Counted from the stretch's first letter, positions 12,241 to 48,197 are shown. The stretch is DNA of 64,000 nucleotides from an uncultured bacterium (GCA_937889595.1 CALAOR010000089.1:28548-92547), one strand, 5' to 3'. Notes: generated by a model from the letters alone, not told the origin. Numbers and translations are program-made.

Positions 12241-12375
12241 TTTGATTGTTCTCTGTTCTGTGTTCTATGTTCTATGTTGGAGAACCAAAATAGAGAACAA
12301 ATAACAAAGAACAGAGAACAGAGAACAGAGAACAAAGAACAAAGAACAAAGAACAAAGAACAAATTGAACTCATA
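12241..12375. repeat. Inverted array of tandem heptamer repeats: (GTTCTRT)n on the left, (AGAACAR)n on the right, inside the atp operon between atpG and atpD
   Basis: The left arm reads tgttctctgttctgtgttctatgttctatg. The right arm reads agaacagagaacagagaacagagaacaaagaacaaagaacaaagaacaaagaacaa. Confidence 0.8.
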
Positions 12376-23819: not shown

Positions 23820-23894
23820 GTCCCCATCGTCTAACGGTTAGGACACCGCCCTTTCACGGCGGTAATGGGAGTTCGATTCTCCCTGAGGACGCCA
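23820..23894 (+). tRNA. tRNA-Glu (anticodon UUC), CCA encoded
   Basis: The cloverleaf was folded by eye. The anticodon loop is CTTTCAC and the T-arm is GGGAGTTCGATTCTCCC. There is one C-A mismatch in the acceptor stem. Confidence 0.8.
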
Positions 23895-23930
23895 AAAACG
23901 ATGGCCAGCGTAAGCTGGCCATCGTTTTTG
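23895..23930 (+). terminator. Perfect hairpin terminator after tRNA-Glu
   Basis: The stem is aaaaacgatggccagc-gtaa-gctggccatcgttttt. Confidence 0.7.
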
Positions 23931-23935
23931 GCGGA

Positions 23936-24211
23936 GCAGATTGAGCAGGTTGAACAGTTGAGCAGGTTGACGAACTAATCTAAACAAACTCAACTGTTTG
24001 CCGCACCACCACGCAATCTGCGGTCAATCTGCTCAACCTGCTCAATCTGTTCAGGTTTTGGTTTCAAAACGTAGGGGGTGATAATTCAAGTTTTCCATAT
24101 GTGTTGAGCGTCAAAACTCACTGAATTTTATAATCTAAAACTCATTCTTCCGGTTTCATTCCGGCTTGTTTTTTGTCCTCTCCACCTGCTCAATCTGTTC
24201 AACTGTTCGAC
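23936..24211. repeat. Array of direct and inverted ~12-bp TGAGCAGGTTGA / TGCTCAA(C/T)CTG motifs at the tRNA-proximal edge of the AT-rich island
   Basis: The left arm spans 23936-23972 and the imperfect inverse arm 24012-24056. A further copy lies at 24183-24211. Confidence 0.6.
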
Positions 24212-24234
24212 TTCAAAATATATGGGGTAAGTTT

Positions 24235-24522
24235 ATGTTCATGTTCGAAAACCTGCAGGTCTACCAAAAGTCCGTAGACCTTGCCGAAAAGATCACATCC
24301 ATCACCCACGATTTCCCGAAAGGCTACTTCTACTTAACGGACCAGCTAAACCGGGCGATTCTCTCCGTAACCCTGAACATCACCGAAGGCAACGGCCGTT
24401 GGCATAAAAACGACCGCAAACATTTTTTCTATATCTCCCGGGGTTCGACCCAGGAGTGTGTGCCTATTCTGGAACTGTGCAGGCGCAAGAAACTTATTTC
24501 AGATGAGGTTAATATGGAATGA
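24235..24522 (+). CDS. Four-helix-bundle protein (23S rRNA intervening-sequence protein family)
   Basis: The sequence MFENLQVYQKSVDLAEKI...LNRAILSVTLNITEGNGRWHKNDRKHFFYISRGSTQECVPILEL is typical of PF05635. Confidence 0.7.
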   Translation: MFMFENLQVYQKSVDLAEKITSITHDFPKGYFYLTDQLNRAILSVTLNITEGNGRWHKNDRKHFFYISRGSTQECVPILELCRRKKLISDEVNME

Positions 24523-24644
24523 AAATAGGCTCGGAAAACTACAAAAACATTAAAGCAAAGGTCAAATTTTGCCGATAATGGTATAACGATGAAGTAGGCA
24601 CCACAATTGGTTGACTAATTGTCTAACTTATTGTAATATTCTTT

Positions 24645-25064
24645 ATGGGACAAATAAGGATAGATACAAAAAGTTATCAAAACATTGACTTGGCACGATA
24701 TCATTTTAGAAAGACACATAATTACTTTAATGTAGTGATAAGTAATATGTATTATGGAGTATTTCAACTAATAAAGCATAAGCTATATAATTGGTATATT
24801 AACAATCATCGCTCAACAAAAGAAGTTGATTTTTTTAAACACAGTGATATCAAAACAAGACTTAAAGAATATGCATTAGATAAACAGGTTGCAGGATATG
24901 CACCTCAAATACAAACAAGGGTTGAAGATTATTTGTATTCTCTTCGAGAAACGAGAAGAGTATCAGATTATCACTTTACAAGTCCTATCATAGAACACGA
25001 GGAATTTAGAACTTTACTGGTAAAAAGTAGATTTATAATAGAGGTAATGAATAAAATATTTTAG
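24645..25064 (+). CDS. Small alpha-helical protein of unknown function with a C-terminal Rx4-6H motif (possible HEPN-like domain); first gene of a tight three-gene cassette
   Basis: It is 139 aa and AT-rich, with the motif RETRRVSDYH near the C-terminus. No other recognisable family. Confidence 0.4.
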   Translation: MGQIRIDTKSYQNIDLARYHFRKTHNYFNVVISNMYYGVFQLIKHKLYNWYINNHRSTKEVDFFKHSDIKTRLKEYALDKQVAGYAPQIQTRVEDYLYSLRETRRVSDYHFTSPIIEHEEFRTLLVKSRFIIEVMNKIF

Positions 25065-25071
25065 GAGAATT

Positions 25072-25581
25072 ATGAGAAAAAATGATGCAGTGATAAGCCG
25101 AATAAAGGATGAATTAAAGGAAAAGTTTAGCCCTAAAAAGTTAGTTTCTAAATTTGATTCTGATTCGCAAGAATACGTTATAATGGTTGATAGAAAAACC
25201 ATTAGGCGTAAAGATTTTGCAGAATGGAGCGTTAGGCTATTAGATGATGTTAGAAAAATGAATATTAATTTAGTTTTCACGTCACATATTCCCGTGGAAA
25301 CTTTAACCGAATATAAGAAGGTTGGTATATATTCGGAAATGTTAAAAACAATTTGGAGTTCTTTCGAAAAGTTAGAAAAAGTAGATGTAAAATTAGAGTT
25401 TGTTTCGGAAAATGTATCAGGTGACTATGGATGGAATAAGTTTTTGGTAAAAAGCCAGATGAAAACTCAAAATAAAATTGCAACGAATGATTTTGGATTA
25501 AATAGAGTGGAAGTTAAAAAAGTTATCAATACGGAATTAACAACGATTAAATTTCAAAGGGACTTTGCGGTGGCGGCATAA
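25072..25581 (+). CDS. Hypothetical protein, second gene of the cassette
   Basis: It is 169 aa. An RBS (aggag) lies 7 nt after the upstream stop, and its stop overlaps the start of the next gene. Confidence 0.45.
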   Translation: MRKNDAVISRIKDELKEKFSPKKLVSKFDSDSQEYVIMVDRKTIRRKDFAEWSVRLLDDVRKMNINLVFTSHIPVETLTEYKKVGIYSEMLKTIWSSFEKLEKVDVKLEFVSENVSGDYGWNKFLVKSQMKTQNKIATNDFGLNRVEVKKVINTELTTIKFQRDFAVAA

Positions 25582-26057
25582 TGTCTGAAAACCAGAATAA
25601 CAATATCAATATAAGCACAATACTTTTAGAAGAGTTAGAATTTAAGCGTAAACCAAACGTGCCTGATTATTTAATTGATGCATCGAAGTTTGATGCAGGT
25701 AAATTAGATTTTGCAACGTCGATAGAAAGGGCATTCTCCGAAAAAGGGGATGCGTTAATATTAAGAGTTAGAATTGCGATTACTGAAAAGGATGTTGCAG
25801 AACCGACGTTTAATCTTGTCTGTAAGATGGTTGGAATATTTAGTCAGGAAGAATCAGGCAGTATTTCTCTTGAAAAATTTGCCGAATATAATGCACCTGC
25901 TATAATAATTCCTTATATGAGAGAAGTCATAAGCAGTATATCAACGAAAGCAGGAATAATACCAATTATAATTCCACCACTAAATTTAATTAAAATGATA
26001 AATGAAGCAAAGACCATTCCTGGTGACGATAAGAAATTAATGCAAGATAAAAAATAA
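25581..26057 (+). CDS. Hypothetical protein, third gene of the cassette
   Basis: It is 158 aa. Its start overlaps the previous stop in a TAATG arrangement. Confidence 0.45.
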   Translation: MSENQNNNINISTILLEELEFKRKPNVPDYLIDASKFDAGKLDFATSIERAFSEKGDALILRVRIAITEKDVAEPTFNLVCKMVGIFSQEESGSISLEKFAEYNAPAIIIPYMREVISSISTKAGIIPIIIPPLNLIKMINEAKTIPGDDKKLMQDKK

Positions 26058-26144
26058 TTCCGATAGTCTATTATATAAGATAATCGGTTTCTCCGTCCTC
26101 ATCCAGTTGCGAATGTCGTCTATCTTGGAACGCCAATACAGAAG

Positions 26145-26177
26145 AGCCGTTTTGTCACAAGCAGAACGGCTTTTTTT
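26145..26177 (+). terminator. Rho-independent terminator downstream of the three-gene cassette
   Basis: The hairpin gccgttttgtcacaagcagaacggc is followed by a T-run. Confidence 0.55.
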
Positions 26178-26253
26178 CGTTATGGGACAAGGTTAATCCA
26201 AATAGACAAAAGTTCAAGTTTTATCCATCAAAACAGACAGGCAGACCGACCGA

Positions 26254-26311
26254 CCAACCAACCAACCAACCAACCAACCAACCAACCAACCAACCAACCA
26301 ACCAACCAACA
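26254..26311. repeat. Tetranucleotide microsatellite, (CCAA)~14
   Basis: ccaaccaacc... runs uninterrupted for about 56 nt, preceded by (gacc)3. Confidence 0.9.
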
Positions 26312-26437
26312 CTCGAACTTTAACCTTGCCTTTGTTATTTGTGGTGGCAAAATATGAATAGGATGAGAAATAAAGGGGAAAAATTAATAATCAACTCACA
26401 CCGGCTCACCCATCACATATTCGCTGGAGGCTTATAA

Positions 26438-27073
26438 ATGGAAATAAAAAATATGGTAATTATTGTTCTTTTATCAGTTTGTATTTTTATTTCTTGTCAG
26501 GGGAAGGATAAAAAGGTAAAACAAGCAGAGAATAATCAGTCAAAAAATAACCAGCATCTTTATACGGATATAACCCGGGTTGAAGAGGATATTCCAACTC
26601 AAGTTGAAAATGCTACTCCAACAGAAAACAAACAATATACTATTAAAGGCATTGAACAAATTCGTAACGACATTTTAAAAGAATCAGTACTCAATTTCTG
26701 TAAATTTACCAAAAAGCAAAATTACTCGGCTATTTATAAATATTTGTCAAAGGGTTATTTTGAATTACTACCTTCTAAGACTAAAATTAAGACAGCCAAT
26801 CAGTATATCGATTTTATGCGTAATTCATCGGAGATGGAAGAGACAAAAACTGACAAATTTTTGAAAATTATGAGCGTGCAATACATTGATGTCGCAACGG
26901 CCTATGTTGAAATTGTAAGCGAAGCGATTAACGAAGGTGACTATCATAAAGTTAAATCGATTTATGTTTTTAAAATGGAAAATGGAATATGGAAATTTGA
27001 CGGCATAGTTTTAAAAAGCATTAAAATCATTAAAACCATTCTTAATCGAGATATGGAAGAAACCCCTATGTAA
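26438..27073 (+). CDS. Lipoprotein of unknown function (possible NTF2-like/DUF4878-type fold)
   Basis: A signal peptide with lipobox (FISC) is present and the gene is AT-rich. The C-terminal segment reads DYHKVKSIYVFKMENGIWKFDGIVL. Confidence 0.4.
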   Translation: MEIKNMVIIVLLSVCIFISCQGKDKKVKQAENNQSKNNQHLYTDITRVEEDIPTQVENATPTENKQYTIKGIEQIRNDILKESVLNFCKFTKKQNYSAIYKYLSKGYFELLPSKTKIKTANQYIDFMRNSSEMEETKTDKFLKIMSVQYIDVATAYVEIVSEAINEGDYHKVKSIYVFKMENGIWKFDGIVLKSIKIIKTILNRDMEETPM

Positions 27074-27115
27074 GTTTACAATCAAGCCAACTGCAAATAA
27101 AAAACAAAGGAGCCT

Positions 27116-27418
27116 GTGCATATGCCGGTCTTAAAACCCAAAAGCAAAGCCGTAAGCGCCTTCATAAGGCGGTACCCCCCAAATGTCAGGAAAACACTTG
27201 AAAAGATCCGTGAAACCGTGCGAAAGGCTGCTCCGGCTGCTGAAGAAACCATCAGTTACATGATGCCGGCTTATAAACTGAACGGGATCCTGGTTTACTT
27301 TTCCGGATTTAAGGACCACATCAGTTTTTTCCCGACCTCCTCGGGGATAAAGGCGTTTAAAACGGAACTGTCCGGCTACGACCTGTCAAAAGGCACGGTG
27401 CATTTCCAGCCGGATTAA
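27116..27418 (+). CDS. DUF1801 (YdhG-like) domain protein
   Basis: The motif EETISYMMPAYKLNGILVYFSGFKDHISFFPT is characteristic of PF08818. Confidence 0.6.
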   Translation: MHMPVLKPKSKAVSAFIRRYPPNVRKTLEKIRETVRKAAPAAEETISYMMPAYKLNGILVYFSGFKDHISFFPTSSGIKAFKTELSGYDLSKGTVHFQPD

Positions 27419-27607
27419 CCCATACCATATGGTTTGATAACTAAAATCGTAAAATTCAGGGTTAAGGAAAATTTTATAGCAAAGAAAAAAAACGCATAAA
27501 CTACCGCGTTATTTCGGAGTAAAATGTGCAGCTTTTATGGAACTTTTTTGGGTTTTAACTGTCCAATATATATCTATATTTATAAGCCCAAAACCAGAGG
27601 TGAAAAG

Positions 27608-28900
27608 ATGAAAAAAGCAATGTCCGCAGTTTTAGTTATGATCAGTTTCTTGTTTTTTGTGGTATTATCCCAGGGCTGCGCCGCTAAGCACACGCCGGCT
27701 TCTGTAACAGGCGCTGACAATTCCGCAACAATCCAGTCATGCGTACCTAAAAAAGGCAATAATGTTTTTGCCGGCGATTTTTATGCCAAATGCAAGGACA
27801 CCACAAGCGGAAATGTGTTTTTCTCGCCTTATTCGATTTTTTCCGCGCTTTCAATGACATACGAAGGGGCAAAAGGCGCCACGGCTGACCAGATGGCTGC
27901 CGTGTTGCACCTTCCGAGCGATTCGGCTGCGCGCTTGGCCGGATTTGTCGAGCTTATGGGAGCCATTAACGCGCCCGGGAAAAATTACACTCTTAGTACG
28001 GCAAACAACCTCTGGCTTCAGACGGATTTCACTGTTTATCCGAGTTATACCTCTGTACTCACGCAGTATTACCTTGCTACTATCACGCTTCTTGATTTTG
28101 TGAATGATACGGAAAATTCGAGGTTGACCATAAACAATACGGTGGCAAACGAGACAAATAATAAAATAACAGACCTCTTGCCGTCCGGCACCATTACGAA
28201 TAAAACACGGCTTGTACTTACCAATGCGATTTATATGAAGGCTGACTGGGCGATCAAGTTCAAGGCGGCACTTACAATTACCGATAATTTCAATACCACT
28301 GCCTCAACGCCGGTTAAGGTATCCATGATGAGCCAGACTCTTGGAGGCAGCATAGAGGATTATTACGGCGCAGCGCAGGTATATGAGATGCCTTATGTGA
28401 ACAATGAACTTTCAATGTTCATCTTTTTGCCGCTCCAGGGCCAGATGGCAGGCCTGGAAAGCGTTATGACAGGGAACAAGTTAAATGACTGGTTCGCGGC
28501 CAGGACAGCTCCCGCGGCTCTGATAATAGGCGGGGTTGAGGTAATACTCCCGAAATTCACATTTACGGAAAACTATGACCTTACATCAGTACTGCCGGCT
28601 ATGGGAATGCCGCTGGCGTTTTCGGAAACTGGCGCTGATTTTACGGGCATAGCAAAGATCCCGGGCAAAAATCTTTATATTTCAAAGGTGCTGCATAAGG
28701 CTTTTGTGTCCGTTGACGAAGCGGGAACAGAAGCTGCCGCGGCCACGGCCGTGATAATTACGGTAATCACTTCAATCGCAACACAACCCCTTATCCCGCA
28801 GATTTTCAGGGTTGACCATCCGTTTATTTTCGTGATAAGGGAAAACACCACGAACGCGATTCTTTTCATGGGCAGGGTAATGGACCCGACGGCAAATTAA
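27608..28900 (+). CDS. Serpin (serine protease inhibitor), probable lipoprotein
   Basis: A lipobox (LSQGC) is present. Serpin blocks include NVFFSPYSIFSALSMTYEGAKG and LVLTNAIYMKADW. The reactive-centre hinge is GTEAAAATA and the C-terminal block is VDHPFIFVIRE. Confidence 0.8.
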   Translation: MKKAMSAVLVMISFLFFVVLSQGCAAKHTPASVTGADNSATIQSCVPKKGNNVFAGDFYAKCKDTTSGNVFFSPYSIFSALSMTYEGAKGATADQMAAVLHLPSDSAARLAGFVELMGAINAPGKNYTLSTANNLWLQTDFTVYPSYTSVLTQYYLATITLLDFVNDTENSRLTINNTVANETNNKITDLLPSGTITNKTRLVLTNAIYMKADWAIKFKAALTITDNFNTTASTPVKVSMMSQTLGGSIEDYYGAAQVYEMPYVNNELSMFIFLPLQGQMAGLESVMTGNKLNDWFAARTAPAALIIGGVEVILPKFTFTENYDLTSVLPAMGMPLAFSETGADFTGIAKIPGKNLYISKVLHKAFVSVDEAGTEAAAATAVIITVITSIATQPLIPQIFRVDHPFIFVIRENTTNAILFMGRVMDPTAN

Positions 28901-48068: not shown

Positions 48069-48197
48069 TCCGATCAGAGAGTAGATAGGAGAGAGTAGAT
48101 AGGTGATAAGTCCCATCTGCCATCGCCTGTCTGCTATTGTTTGTCTACTATCTACTTTCTACTCTCTACTATCTCCAGAATTTGCATCAGCAAATTC

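Follow-up and report, generated by a model that had tools for sequence, protein, structure and literature searches.

The three-gene cassette that lies downstream of tRNA-Glu in the analysed window, a 64,000-nt stretch of DNA from an uncultured bacterium, is probably a toxin–antitoxin–chaperone (TAC) system whose toxin–antitoxin pair has hitherto not been described alongside a SecB chaperone. To our knowledge, only four toxin–antitoxin pairs are described with such a chaperone, namely HigBA, MqsRA, HicAB and CmdTA. The pair encoded by g1 and g2 (Table 1) falls within none of them, and neither g1 nor g2 has a match to any of the four in Pfam, NCBIfam and PADLOC. Membership in these pairs describes the known representatives of TAC systems and does not define their mechanism. 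The gene arrangement is that of all described TAC systems, which follow the order toxin, antitoxin, chaperone (PMC3581621): g1, g2 and the SecB-like gene g3 form a co-directional tricistron with a 7-nt gap containing AGGAG between g1 and g2 and a 1-nt overlap (TAATG) of the g2 stop with the g3 start. Moreover, g2 ends in Ala-Ala, one of the two C-terminal degron dipeptides (Ala-Ala or Val-Ala) of TAC antitoxins. The initial annotation had delineated the three ORFs of 139, 169 and 158 aa, the 7-nt gap with its ribosome-binding site and the TAATG overlap; the coordinates proved exact and both junctions were recovered.

Table 1. Features of the cassette and its surroundings (positions in the window)
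Feature	Position	Strand	Evidence or remark
tRNA-Glu(UUC)	23,820-23,894	+	ARAGORN; Rfam tRNA 59.6 bits
tRNA-Glu 3' end TGAGGACGCCAA	23,884-23,895	+	putative integration target
Perfect 20-bp hairpin over tRNA 3' end	23,890-23,933	+	inverted repeat, 100% complementary
Arrays of 9-nt GAGCAGGTT-type units, direct and inverted	23,934-23,970, 24,014-24,053, 24,186-24,212	.	repeat scans
23S-rRNA-IVS-type four-helix-bundle protein gene	24,235-24,522	+	PF05635, E 5.5e-24, profile positions 1-88 of 106
Promoter-like TTGACT-17-TAATAT	24,611-24,639	+	consensus scan, 9/12
g1, putative toxin, HEPN-fold, 139 aa	24,645-25,064	+	ORF, structure and family comparison
g2, putative antitoxin, 169 aa	25,072-25,581	+	ORF; family alignment
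g3, SecB-like TAC-type chaperone, 158 aa	25,581-26,057	+	PF02556, 2.3e-10
66-nt element	26,071-26,136	+	blastn, 92% to relative L003; unique in window
Intrinsic terminator, hairpin and T-run	26,138-26,177	+	fold -23.2 kcal/mol, z -6.4
(CCAA)14 microsatellite, exact	26,254-26,309	+	repeat scan
AT-rich lipoprotein-type gene, 211 aa	26,438-27,073	+	ORF; GC 0.30

The low-GC insert and the recurrence of the triad

Computation of GC and GC3 confirmed a region of foreign composition. Between 24,520 and 27,080 the GC content is ~31% as compared to 46% for the whole window; in 400-nt windows it amounts to 0.29-0.35 from 24,400 to 27,000 and to 0.44-0.52 in the flanks, and the 1.5-kb window with the lowest GC content in the entire 64 kb starts at 24,601 (0.307; mean 0.459, sd 0.035). 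GC3 is 0.20 in g1, 0.28 in g2, 0.25 in g3 and 0.28 in the lipoprotein gene, as compared to 0.52-0.65 across the GH94, GlgA, IVS, DUF1801, serpin and amylase genes. The AT-rich region of about 30% GC reported in the initial annotation is therefore real and anomalous in GC3 as well, but it does not begin immediately 3' of tRNA-Glu as had been stated. Rather, the insert has its left edge at about 24,505-24,525, within the 3'-terminal part of the IVS gene, since repeat block and IVS gene alike show a host-like GC content (0.476) and are kept in the nearest relative. Both had been counted as part of the island. The GAGCAGGTT-type arrays (23,934-24,212) do exist, but they belong to the host backbone, relatives carrying analogous arrays built from another unit, as seen by alignment; likewise, the IVS ORF was recovered and matches PF05635, but the gene is a host gene.

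The closest genome is a MAG of the candidate division FCPU426 (L002), whose syntenic slot is devoid of the cassette. There, the IVS gene is full length (116 aa) and is followed by the terminator that in the window sits after g3; window positions 26,125-26,228 correspond to L002 3,106-3,209 with 81% identity in this terminator region. The window IVS protein is truncated to 95 aa, and its homology does not extend beyond about residue 91 (nt ~24,507), a point that marks the left junction of the insert. Insertion of the cassette truncated the IVS gene. The hairpin with T-run, which had been regarded as the cassette's own terminator, originally belonged to this host gene and has come to terminate transcription of the cassette. 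A low-GC insert of ~1.6 kb (about 24,510-26,124) that separates the body of the host IVS gene from its terminator is the best explanation of the locus, as is a variable slot downstream of tRNA-Glu for the site of insertion, and most likely the cassette was acquired horizontally.

The right junction of the insert is marked by the 66-nt element. This element is closed by TTGGAACGCCAA at 26,125-26,136, a copy of the tRNA-Glu 3' end found at the same position in L002 and L003. The downstream repeat of the tRNA end that had been suggested as a check is thus present, albeit in degenerate form, with 9 of 12 bases matching and an exact core of ACGCCAA. The 20-bp hairpin over the tRNA end is kept in L002 and L003 according to the alignment, and L003 duplicates at least 47 nt of this region, as window positions 23,887-23,933 also match L003 2,858-2,904 (89%) in an alignment that runs to the contig end. 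No integrase gene was found between tRNA-Glu and the conserved amylase gene. Further downstream, the (CCAA)14 repeat and the AT-rich lipoprotein gene are both present as initially noted, and both lie outside the TAC module: the repeat is located within an intergenic stretch otherwise shared with L002, ~130 nt upstream of the lipoprotein gene, which is itself a separate gene of the variable slot.

The full g1-g2-g3 triad is present in five other distinct low-GC metagenomic loci, namely L029 (grouped with L030 and L031), L033, L036, L037 (identical to L039) and L040. Order and tight coupling are the same in all of them, and the Ala-Ala-stop-ATG junction of g2 and g3 is kept in L029, L033, L036 and L037. 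In addition, g1 and g2 occur in four end-cut contigs (L032, L034, L035, L038). In three end-cut contigs a restriction-endonuclease-like domain or DUF4145 lies beside them; DUF4145 and a restriction-endonuclease domain are found on L034 and L035. The contigs carrying cassette homologues have 24-40% GC, and no relatives were found in viral contigs. The loci with the full triad adjoin ParA/ParB, transposases of the Mutator and IS200 types, and Vsr. The triad is a conserved mobile unit that is kept together in unrelated mobile contexts. The neighbourhood comparison proposed earlier thus places homologues beside transposase, ParAB and Vsr genes, but the window locus itself, with glycogen-metabolism, serpin and pilus genes as neighbours, is not a defence island.

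The HEPN-fold protein g1

Judged by its structural model and its sequence family, g1 is a HEPN-fold protein. The model, built from an alignment of four sequences and of medium confidence (pLDDT 75), is an all-helical bundle with the four-helix up-and-down HEPN topology, and its top Foldseek hit is 2hsb (TM 0.64). The window protein has no significant Pfam hit and reaches no threshold; Pfam HEPN is matched by seven of ten g1 relatives (best E 2.3e-6), and the profile built from the family can be aligned with PDB 9xbd, a protein with a HEPN domain, the YY, SH and R-x3-DY motifs being shared. Three relatives are detectable among 1.84 billion representative proteins, and seven further loci were obtained via a DNA scan. 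Every g1 locus long enough to show neighbours is linked to a g2-like gene and SecB. The promoter-like element ends 5 nt ahead of the g1 ATG, with a comparable layout in L029, and there is no Shine-Dalgarno sequence before g1, so that its mRNA may be leaderless.

Eight residues (Y36, Y37, Q41, K44, H66, R104, D108 and Y109) are invariant in the g1 family, the sequences of which are only 23-39% identical. The Rx4-6H motif reported in the initial annotation is found in the window protein as R104-x5-H110, but only three of ten family members retain the His, so that the canonical catalytic motif is not a feature of the family, whose invariant His is H66. For this reason, RNase activity of g1 is uncertain. 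The invariant set, composed of H66, R104-x3-D108-Y109, Y36, Y37, Q41 and K44, could constitute either a different active site or no more than a surface for binding. A rival reading is a chaperone-dependent module in which g1 is not a nuclease toxin and its HEPN fold serves as a non-catalytic RNA- or protein-binding module, the effector residing elsewhere, e.g. in the g2 N-domain, or the cassette acting in addiction or regulation without RNA cleavage. The rarity of the canonical His agrees with this idea, as do the existence of catalytically inactive HEPN domains, e.g. in human sacsin (PMC3710099), and the adjoining IVS protein, which is a non-catalytic four-helix bundle as well. However, eight polar or aromatic residues, Arg and His among them, that remain invariant at such low identity fit an active site better than a scaffold. 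Moreover, in every described TAC the upstream gene encodes the toxin and the antitoxin carries a C-terminal extension (PMC3581621). We therefore consider a non-nuclease g1 unlikely, and by analogy with these systems g1 would be toxic, probably through RNase activity.

The candidate antitoxin g2 and the SecB-like chaperone g3

The g2 protein is composed of a conserved N-domain of ~75 aa and an aromatic-rich variable tail of 94 aa. No match was found in Pfam, PDB or PADLOC, and the PADLOC model of CmdA, PD-T4-9_B, is not matched either. The N-domain matches no known antitoxin or family, and neither an HTH nor an RHH fold is detectable in it; F19 is its only invariant residue, with E34, D40 and F49 being nearly invariant. 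A HEPN toxin next to a small partner could also suggest a HEPN-MNT-type pair (type VII or type II), in which g2, as a minimal nucleotidyltransferase, would AMPylate the HEPN toxin or bind to it and g3 would be an add-on. This appears rather improbable: no member of the g2 family matches a nucleotidyltransferase in Pfam (E up to 5) or the PDB, the family is devoid of the G-[SG]...D-x-[DE] signature, the HEPN gene comes first, as in TAC systems, and such a pair would leave the Ala-Ala-ended tail and the SecB partner unexplained.

Ala-Ala forms the C-terminus of all seven complete members of the g2 family (AVAA, PEAA, WVAA, GLAA, NLAA, YQAA, AKAA). Their tails vary in sequence and in length (43-94 aa) with 8-16% aromatic residues, whereas the N-domain is steady at 73-83 aa; in the window protein, aromatic clusters are located at about residues 95/98, 119-124, 141 and 161/165. 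Chaperone-addiction (ChAD) elements are variable in length and sequence and are recognized via aromatic residues (bioRxiv 10.1101/2024.02.24.581848). Demonstrated ClpXP degrons are provided by the LAA end of CmdA (PMC11618068) and by the VA end of M. tuberculosis HigA1 (bioRxiv 10.1101/2024.02.24.581848). By comparison with these proteins, the g2 tail is a candidate ChAD element with a candidate ClpX degron.

On sequence grounds, g3 is homologous to SecB but differs from the export chaperone of the housekeeping type. It matches Pfam SecB (PF02556) with 41 bits at a gathering cut-off of 26, retrieves SecB structures from the PDB and finds its best defence-database match in PADLOC PD-T4-9_C, i.e. 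CmdC (3.3e-14). Against the housekeeping SecB equivalog TIGR00809 it scores 38.2 bits at a cut-off of 102.8, and it remains far under every such cut-off. Thus, the initial impression that none of the three proteins belongs to a recognizable family does not hold for g3, nor for g1 with its HEPN fold. PADLOC-type models detect only the chaperone of this cassette, and in the public record g3 is named 'preprotein translocase subunit SecB' and the two other genes hypothetical proteins. An alternative view, with g3 as the ordinary export SecB of the organism next to two unrelated small hypothetical genes, all in a housekeeping operon within an AT-rich patch, would agree with this name and with homology to SecB over the full length. 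It is very hard to reconcile, however, with the low equivalog score, the absence of g3 from the syntenic slot of the nearest genome, a GC3 of 0.25 versus about 0.58 in host genes, the overlap of the g3 start with the g2 stop, and the fact that homologues of g1 and g2 accompany g3 in unrelated mobile contexts wherever contigs reach far enough.

Proposed mechanism and relation to known systems

In the TAC system proposed here, g1 would act as a HEPN-fold toxin, most likely an RNase, which is bound and masked by the conserved N-domain of g2. The long aromatic-rich tail of g2 would serve as a ChAD element ending in an Ala-Ala ClpX degron. The g3 protein, presumably a tetramer, would hold this tail, thereby shielding g2 from aggregation and from degradation by ClpXP. 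Titration of the chaperone would in turn lead to degradation of g2 and release of g1, resulting in cell arrest. Toxicity, neutralisation of g1 by g2, chaperone addiction and the involvement of ClpXP are thus predicted from the behaviour of known TAC systems. TAC modules are known to abort phage infection, as in the case of CmdTAC. If CmdTAC and HigBAC serve as a guide, newly made phage capsid or tail protein may compete for g3; alternatively, proteotoxic stress may provide the trigger.

A more far-reaching proposal, to which as a whole we give somewhat less than even credence, combines four elements. The catalytic His would be relocated to H66, in a helix inserted between alpha-2 and alpha-3, and would act with R104-x3-D108-Y109; the antitoxin domain neutralising g1 would have a previously unseen fold; the chaperone would double as phage sensor, as in CmdTAC and HigBAC; and the cassette would be a portable 1.4-kb abortive-infection module of low-GC environmental bacteria. 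The novel toxin- or defence-type cassette initially suspected is indeed foreign, tRNA-adjacent, coupled and mobile and bears TAC hallmarks, but it is not a new kind of system, as its CmdC-like SecB and its HEPN fold are recognizable. If our reading is correct, a HEPN-armed TAC would show that the demonstrated modularity of these systems includes the defence RNase fold that is most widespread. Structural studies would gain a small antitoxin domain not described before, and the HEPN superfamily a branch in which the putative active site is rearranged. As the mechanism can be predicted from what is known of TAC biology, the advance would be an incremental and not a conceptual one. The locus also illustrates how TAC modules escape annotation.

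Among HEPN proteins, the HEPN-MNT systems (Shewanella SO_3166/SO_3165; Aphanizomenon HEPN/MNT) likewise feature a HEPN-fold toxin candidate that stands alone and is small (about 130-140 aa), in line with the structural matches. Their partner, however, is a nucleotidyltransferase, which g2 is not according to the searches above; the cassette has the reverse gene order and an additional SecB chaperone, and the g1 family keeps R-x3-D-Y with a distal His instead of the Rx4-6H His. With respect to the UPF0332/Pfam HEPN family (PF05168), e.g. AF0298 (PDB 2hsb), and to PDB 9xbd, the window g1 stays under every Pfam threshold.

The operon logic is that of HigBA-SecB^TA (M. tuberculosis Rv1955-1957; E. 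coli NT1F31 HigBAC), MqsRAC and HicAB-SecB. The toxins of these TACs are RNases (RelE/HigB, MqsR or HicA), paired with DNA-binding antitoxins of the HTH or RHH type (PMC3581621), whereas g1 has a HEPN fold and the g2 N-domain shows neither of the two DNA-binding folds. A C-terminal small aliphatic dipeptide degron is common to these antitoxins and g2. The middle gene of these operons encodes a ChAD tail recognized through aromatic residues, for which the g2 tail is the candidate equivalent: the ChAD of E. coli HigA comprises 96 aa with four aromatic anchors (bioRxiv 10.1101/2024.02.24.581848), the tail of the window protein 94 aa.

CmdTAC (PD-T4-9, E. coli ECOR22) differs from the cassette in its toxin: CmdT is an mRNA ADP-ribosyltransferase, whereas g1 has a HEPN fold and is not matched by the CmdT model PD-T4-9_A. 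The antitoxins differ as well, as g2 does not match PD-T4-9_B. In E. coli, CmdTAC occupies a P2-like prophage hotspot, while the cassette lies next to tRNA-Glu in a slot of an uncultured bacterium that belongs to a candidate phylum. A phage trigger and a role in defence are demonstrated for CmdTAC and would be predictions for the cassette. Both are three-gene operons of toxin, antitoxin and SecB-like chaperone, and g3 best matches CmdC. The CmdTAC antitoxin, like g2, has a small N-terminal part and a long C-terminal extension with an Ala-Ala ClpX degron (LAA in CmdA; PMC11618068), and its sequence varies widely among homologous systems, as is the case for g2.

Composition and insertion site

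The window, which is identical to contig Ga0435751_0000081 of JGI metagenome 3300039455, had been described as harbouring a compositionally foreign, AT-rich island at tRNA-Glu with three tightly coupled small genes (g1, g2 and g3), taken as a candidate defence or toxin-like system. The foreign composition was borne out by windowed GC and GC3 values: GC is 0.29-0.35 at about 24,400-27,000 versus 0.44-0.52 on either flank, GC3 is 0.20-0.28 in g1, g2, g3 and the AT-rich lipoprotein gene versus 0.52-0.65 in six flanking genes, and the 1.5-kb segment starting at 24,601 is the GC minimum of the whole 64 kb, about 4 sd under the mean. The landmarks of the initial annotation were all recovered in place, that is tRNA-Glu, the 9-nt repeat arrays, the ORF for a 23S-rRNA-IVS-type four-helix-bundle protein (IVS gene), the three ORFs with a 7-nt gap containing AGGAG and a TAATG overlap, the terminator hairpin, the (CCAA)14 repeat and a lipoprotein-type ORF. 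Its interpretation found partial support: the observation was confirmed, but the terminator is not the cassette's own, as the same hairpin lies within a stretch conserved in the relative L002.

Searching with the flanking glycogen synthase retrieved the nearest genomes, three MAGs with 86% (L002, candidate division FCPU426), 83% (L003) and 78% (L004) protein identity. The order in L002 is GlgA, tRNA-Glu, a full-length IVS gene (116 aa) and a terminator, followed by glycosyltransferase-like membrane proteins with an NHL-repeat protein and then by alpha-amylase and PilZ. In the window, the IVS protein is cut past about residue 91, near nt 24,507, leaving 95 aa versus 116 aa in L002 and lacking most of the last helix; about 1.6 kb of DNA of 31% GC follows, after which homology to L002 (81%) picks up again. 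The insertion truncated the IVS gene, which may now be a pseudogene.

The right boundary carries TTGGAACGCCAA, a degenerate pseudo-copy of the 3' end of tRNA-Glu (TGAGGACGCCAA). The same pseudo-copy is also found downstream of the IVS gene in L002, and in L003 it is part of a duplicated segment that comprises the tRNA 3' end together with its hairpin (47 nt by BLAST, 89%, the alignment reaching the L003 contig end). A 66-nt element, which occurs once in the window and is 92% identical in L003, immediately precedes the pseudo-copy at the right end in both genomes, while the cargo genes differ; it had no match in the viral contigs scanned. This element may represent the end of a small cassette that lacks an integrase, or else the remnant of an old att site. 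An integrase-borne island was rejected, since no integrase was found. Rfam detected only the tRNA between 23,700 and 27,200.

Further downstream, the (CCAA)14 repeat, exact in the one assembly examined, interrupts an intergenic region that L002 shares except for the repeat; it could allow slipped-strand variation in promoter spacing. About 130 nt beyond it begins the lipoprotein gene (GC 0.30, weak DUF4878 match). The repeat and this gene were rejected as parts of the system, because both lie past the terminator with the L002-conserved stretch in between. Neither the lipoprotein gene nor the DUF1801 and secreted serpin genes are present in the syntenic slot of L002, where their place is taken by two large membrane proteins together with a small lipoprotein and an NHL-repeat protein. 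Because these contents differ, the region from the IVS gene to the alpha-amylase gene is a variable slot.

Inverted arrays of short tandem units, which would form long hairpins, occur in several intergenic regions of the window. L002 and L003 carry a AGAGTAGATAG-type unit after tRNA-Glu in place of that of the window, and Rfam gave no match for the arrays at 23.9-24.2 kb, the only ones scanned.

Coordinates of features in the window and of their counterparts or relatives on other contigs
Feature	Window	Other contig	Remark
TGTTCTA / AGAACAA array	12,247-12,364		about 12.3 kb
Duplicated tRNA 3' end	23,887-23,933	L003 2,858-2,904
GAGCAGGTT array	23,934-24,053; 24,186-24,212		after tRNA-Glu
IVS gene	24,235-24,522		PF05635
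Variable slot	24.5-28.96 kb
Promoter-like -35/-10 pair	24,611-24,647	L029, about 2,455-2,497
g1	24,645-25,064		139 aa
g2	25,072-25,581		169 aa
g3	25,581-26,057		158 aa
66-nt element	26,071-26,136	L003 2,801-2,866
TTGGAACGCCAA	26,125-26,136		tRNA-Glu pseudo-copy
Stretch conserved in L002	26,125-26,228		contains terminator hairpin
(CCAA)14	26,254-26,309
Lipoprotein, DUF1801 and serpin genes	26,438-28,900
AGAGAGTAGATAGG / CTACTATCT array	48,076-48,174		between tRNA-Met and tRNA-Leu
DUF4145 protein		L034 3-587	cassette directly downstream
Restriction-endonuclease-like domain		L035 2-331	cassette directly downstream

Assignment of the three proteins

By sequence, g3 is homologous to SecB, with 41 bits against Pfam PF02556 (gathering score 26) and matches to solved SecB structures. 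Its score against the housekeeping SecB equivalog is only 38 bits, with a cut-off of 102.8 bits, and among the defence-library models it matches best that of CmdC (PD-T4-9_C, 3.3e-14), which is the CmdTAC chaperone.

Fold prediction and profile comparison place g1 among the HEPN-fold proteins. An AlphaFold2 model built from four sequences is all-helical and usable (pLDDT 75, pTM 0.69), and the fold calls use this model alone, the single-sequence model (pLDDT 43) having been discarded. Foldseek with the retained model agrees with a HEPN fold, and a search of the viral fold library BFVD returned no meaningful match. The Pfam HEPN model is matched by seven of ten g1-family members (best E 2.3e-6), and the family profile aligns with the HEPN protein 9xbd across common motifs. 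PADLOC PDC-M05B gave weak matches for three of ten g1 relatives (best E 1.2e-4). Invariant in the alignment of ten sequences are Y36, Y37, Q41, K44, H66, R104, D108 and Y109. The Rx4-6H motif previously noted in g1 is present as R104...H110, but its histidine is retained in just 3/10 family sequences. That this canonical residue is not conserved is the chief weak point in assigning RNase activity to g1; H66, R104, D108 and Y109 may form a rearranged catalytic centre.

Searches with g2 as whole protein, family or N-domain alone against Pfam, NCBIfam, PHROGs, PADLOC and PDB yielded noise only, and g2 as a minimal nucleotidyltransferase (MNT) was rejected on these grounds. Members of the g2 family consist of a conserved N-domain of 73-83 aa and a tail of variable sequence and length (43-94 aa), which is 8-16% aromatic and ends in Ala-Ala in all seven complete members.

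Homologous cassettes

The first two genes are extremely rare. In a word-indexed search of 5.8 billion proteins, g1 and g2 each matched only themselves, as did g3 in its own word-indexed search. Exhaustive phmmer with the g1+g2 concatenation against 1.84 billion representatives retrieved three relatives of g1 and one of g2, and scanning metagenome contigs with a degenerate pattern brought in seven further loci. On every contig of sufficient length, the order is g1-like, g2-like, SecB, with genes that overlap or nearly abut. The full triad is present on L029 (also L030 and L031), L033, L036, L037 (identical to L039) and L040, and four contigs (L032, L034, L035 and L038) end past the g2-like gene. 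The junction between putative antitoxin and chaperone genes, ...GCN-GCN-TAA(T)ATG, is conserved. These contigs have 24-40% GC, like the cassette and unlike its host.

The homologous cassettes lie next to genes characteristic of a mobile or defence context, namely ParA and ParB (L029), a Mutator-type transposase and GIY-YIG (L033), and an IS200-like transposase and Vsr (L040). The DUF4145 protein and the restriction-endonuclease-like domain next to two further cassettes hint at a defence-island context for the g1/g2 family elsewhere. Neither the g1 nor the g3 family alignment matched anything in scans of viral contigs.

Both in the window and in L029, the closest homologous cassette, 5-6 nt separate the end of a promoter-like -35/-10 pair from the start codon of g1, and a Shine-Dalgarno sequence is lacking. 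Such an arrangement suggests that the mRNA of the putative toxin is leaderless.

Comparison with toxin-antitoxin-chaperone systems

In toxin-antitoxin-chaperone (TAC) operons, the toxin gene comes first, the antitoxin gene second and the gene for a SecB-like chaperone third, and the antitoxin carries a variable C-terminal chaperone-addiction element that is recognised via aromatic residues (PMC3581621; PMC5105189; bioRxiv 10.1101/2024.02.24.581848). A terminal aliphatic dipeptide acts as ClpXP degron (LAA for CmdA, VA for Mtb HigA1), and in CmdTAC and HigBAC a phage capsid or tail protein vies with the tail of the antitoxin for chaperone binding, whereby the antitoxin is lost and the toxin released (PMC11618068; bioRxiv 10.1101/2024.02.24.581848). 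The features of the cassette match the published definition, and therefore g1 is read as putative toxin, g2 as putative antitoxin and g3 as the putative chaperone that would shield the g2 tail. We consider it rather likely that the cassette is a TAC-type module, works like one and shows the testable defining features. The toxin would have a HEPN fold and probably be an RNase, and for HEPN RNase toxicity of g1 specifically, a less secure claim than the TAC reading, we see about even chances. By analogy, the trigger would most likely be a phage capsid or tail protein competing for g3 as in CmdTAC and HigBAC, which is purely inferred.

Toxin-antitoxin pairs known to be associated with SecB are HigBA, MqsRA, HicAB (plus MqsA-like and HTH-like antitoxins) and CmdTA (PMC5105189; PMC3581621). 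A HEPN-armed TAC was not reported in the literature searched (TAC, SecB-like or chaperone addiction in combination with HEPN), which does not prove that none has been described. The cassette falls outside CmdTAC, HigBAC, MqsRAC and HEPN-MNT. Under the TAC reading, the g2 N-domain would represent a new antitoxin domain, and the result would extend the modularity of TAC systems in a testable manner, adding this domain to a known principle rather than a new one.
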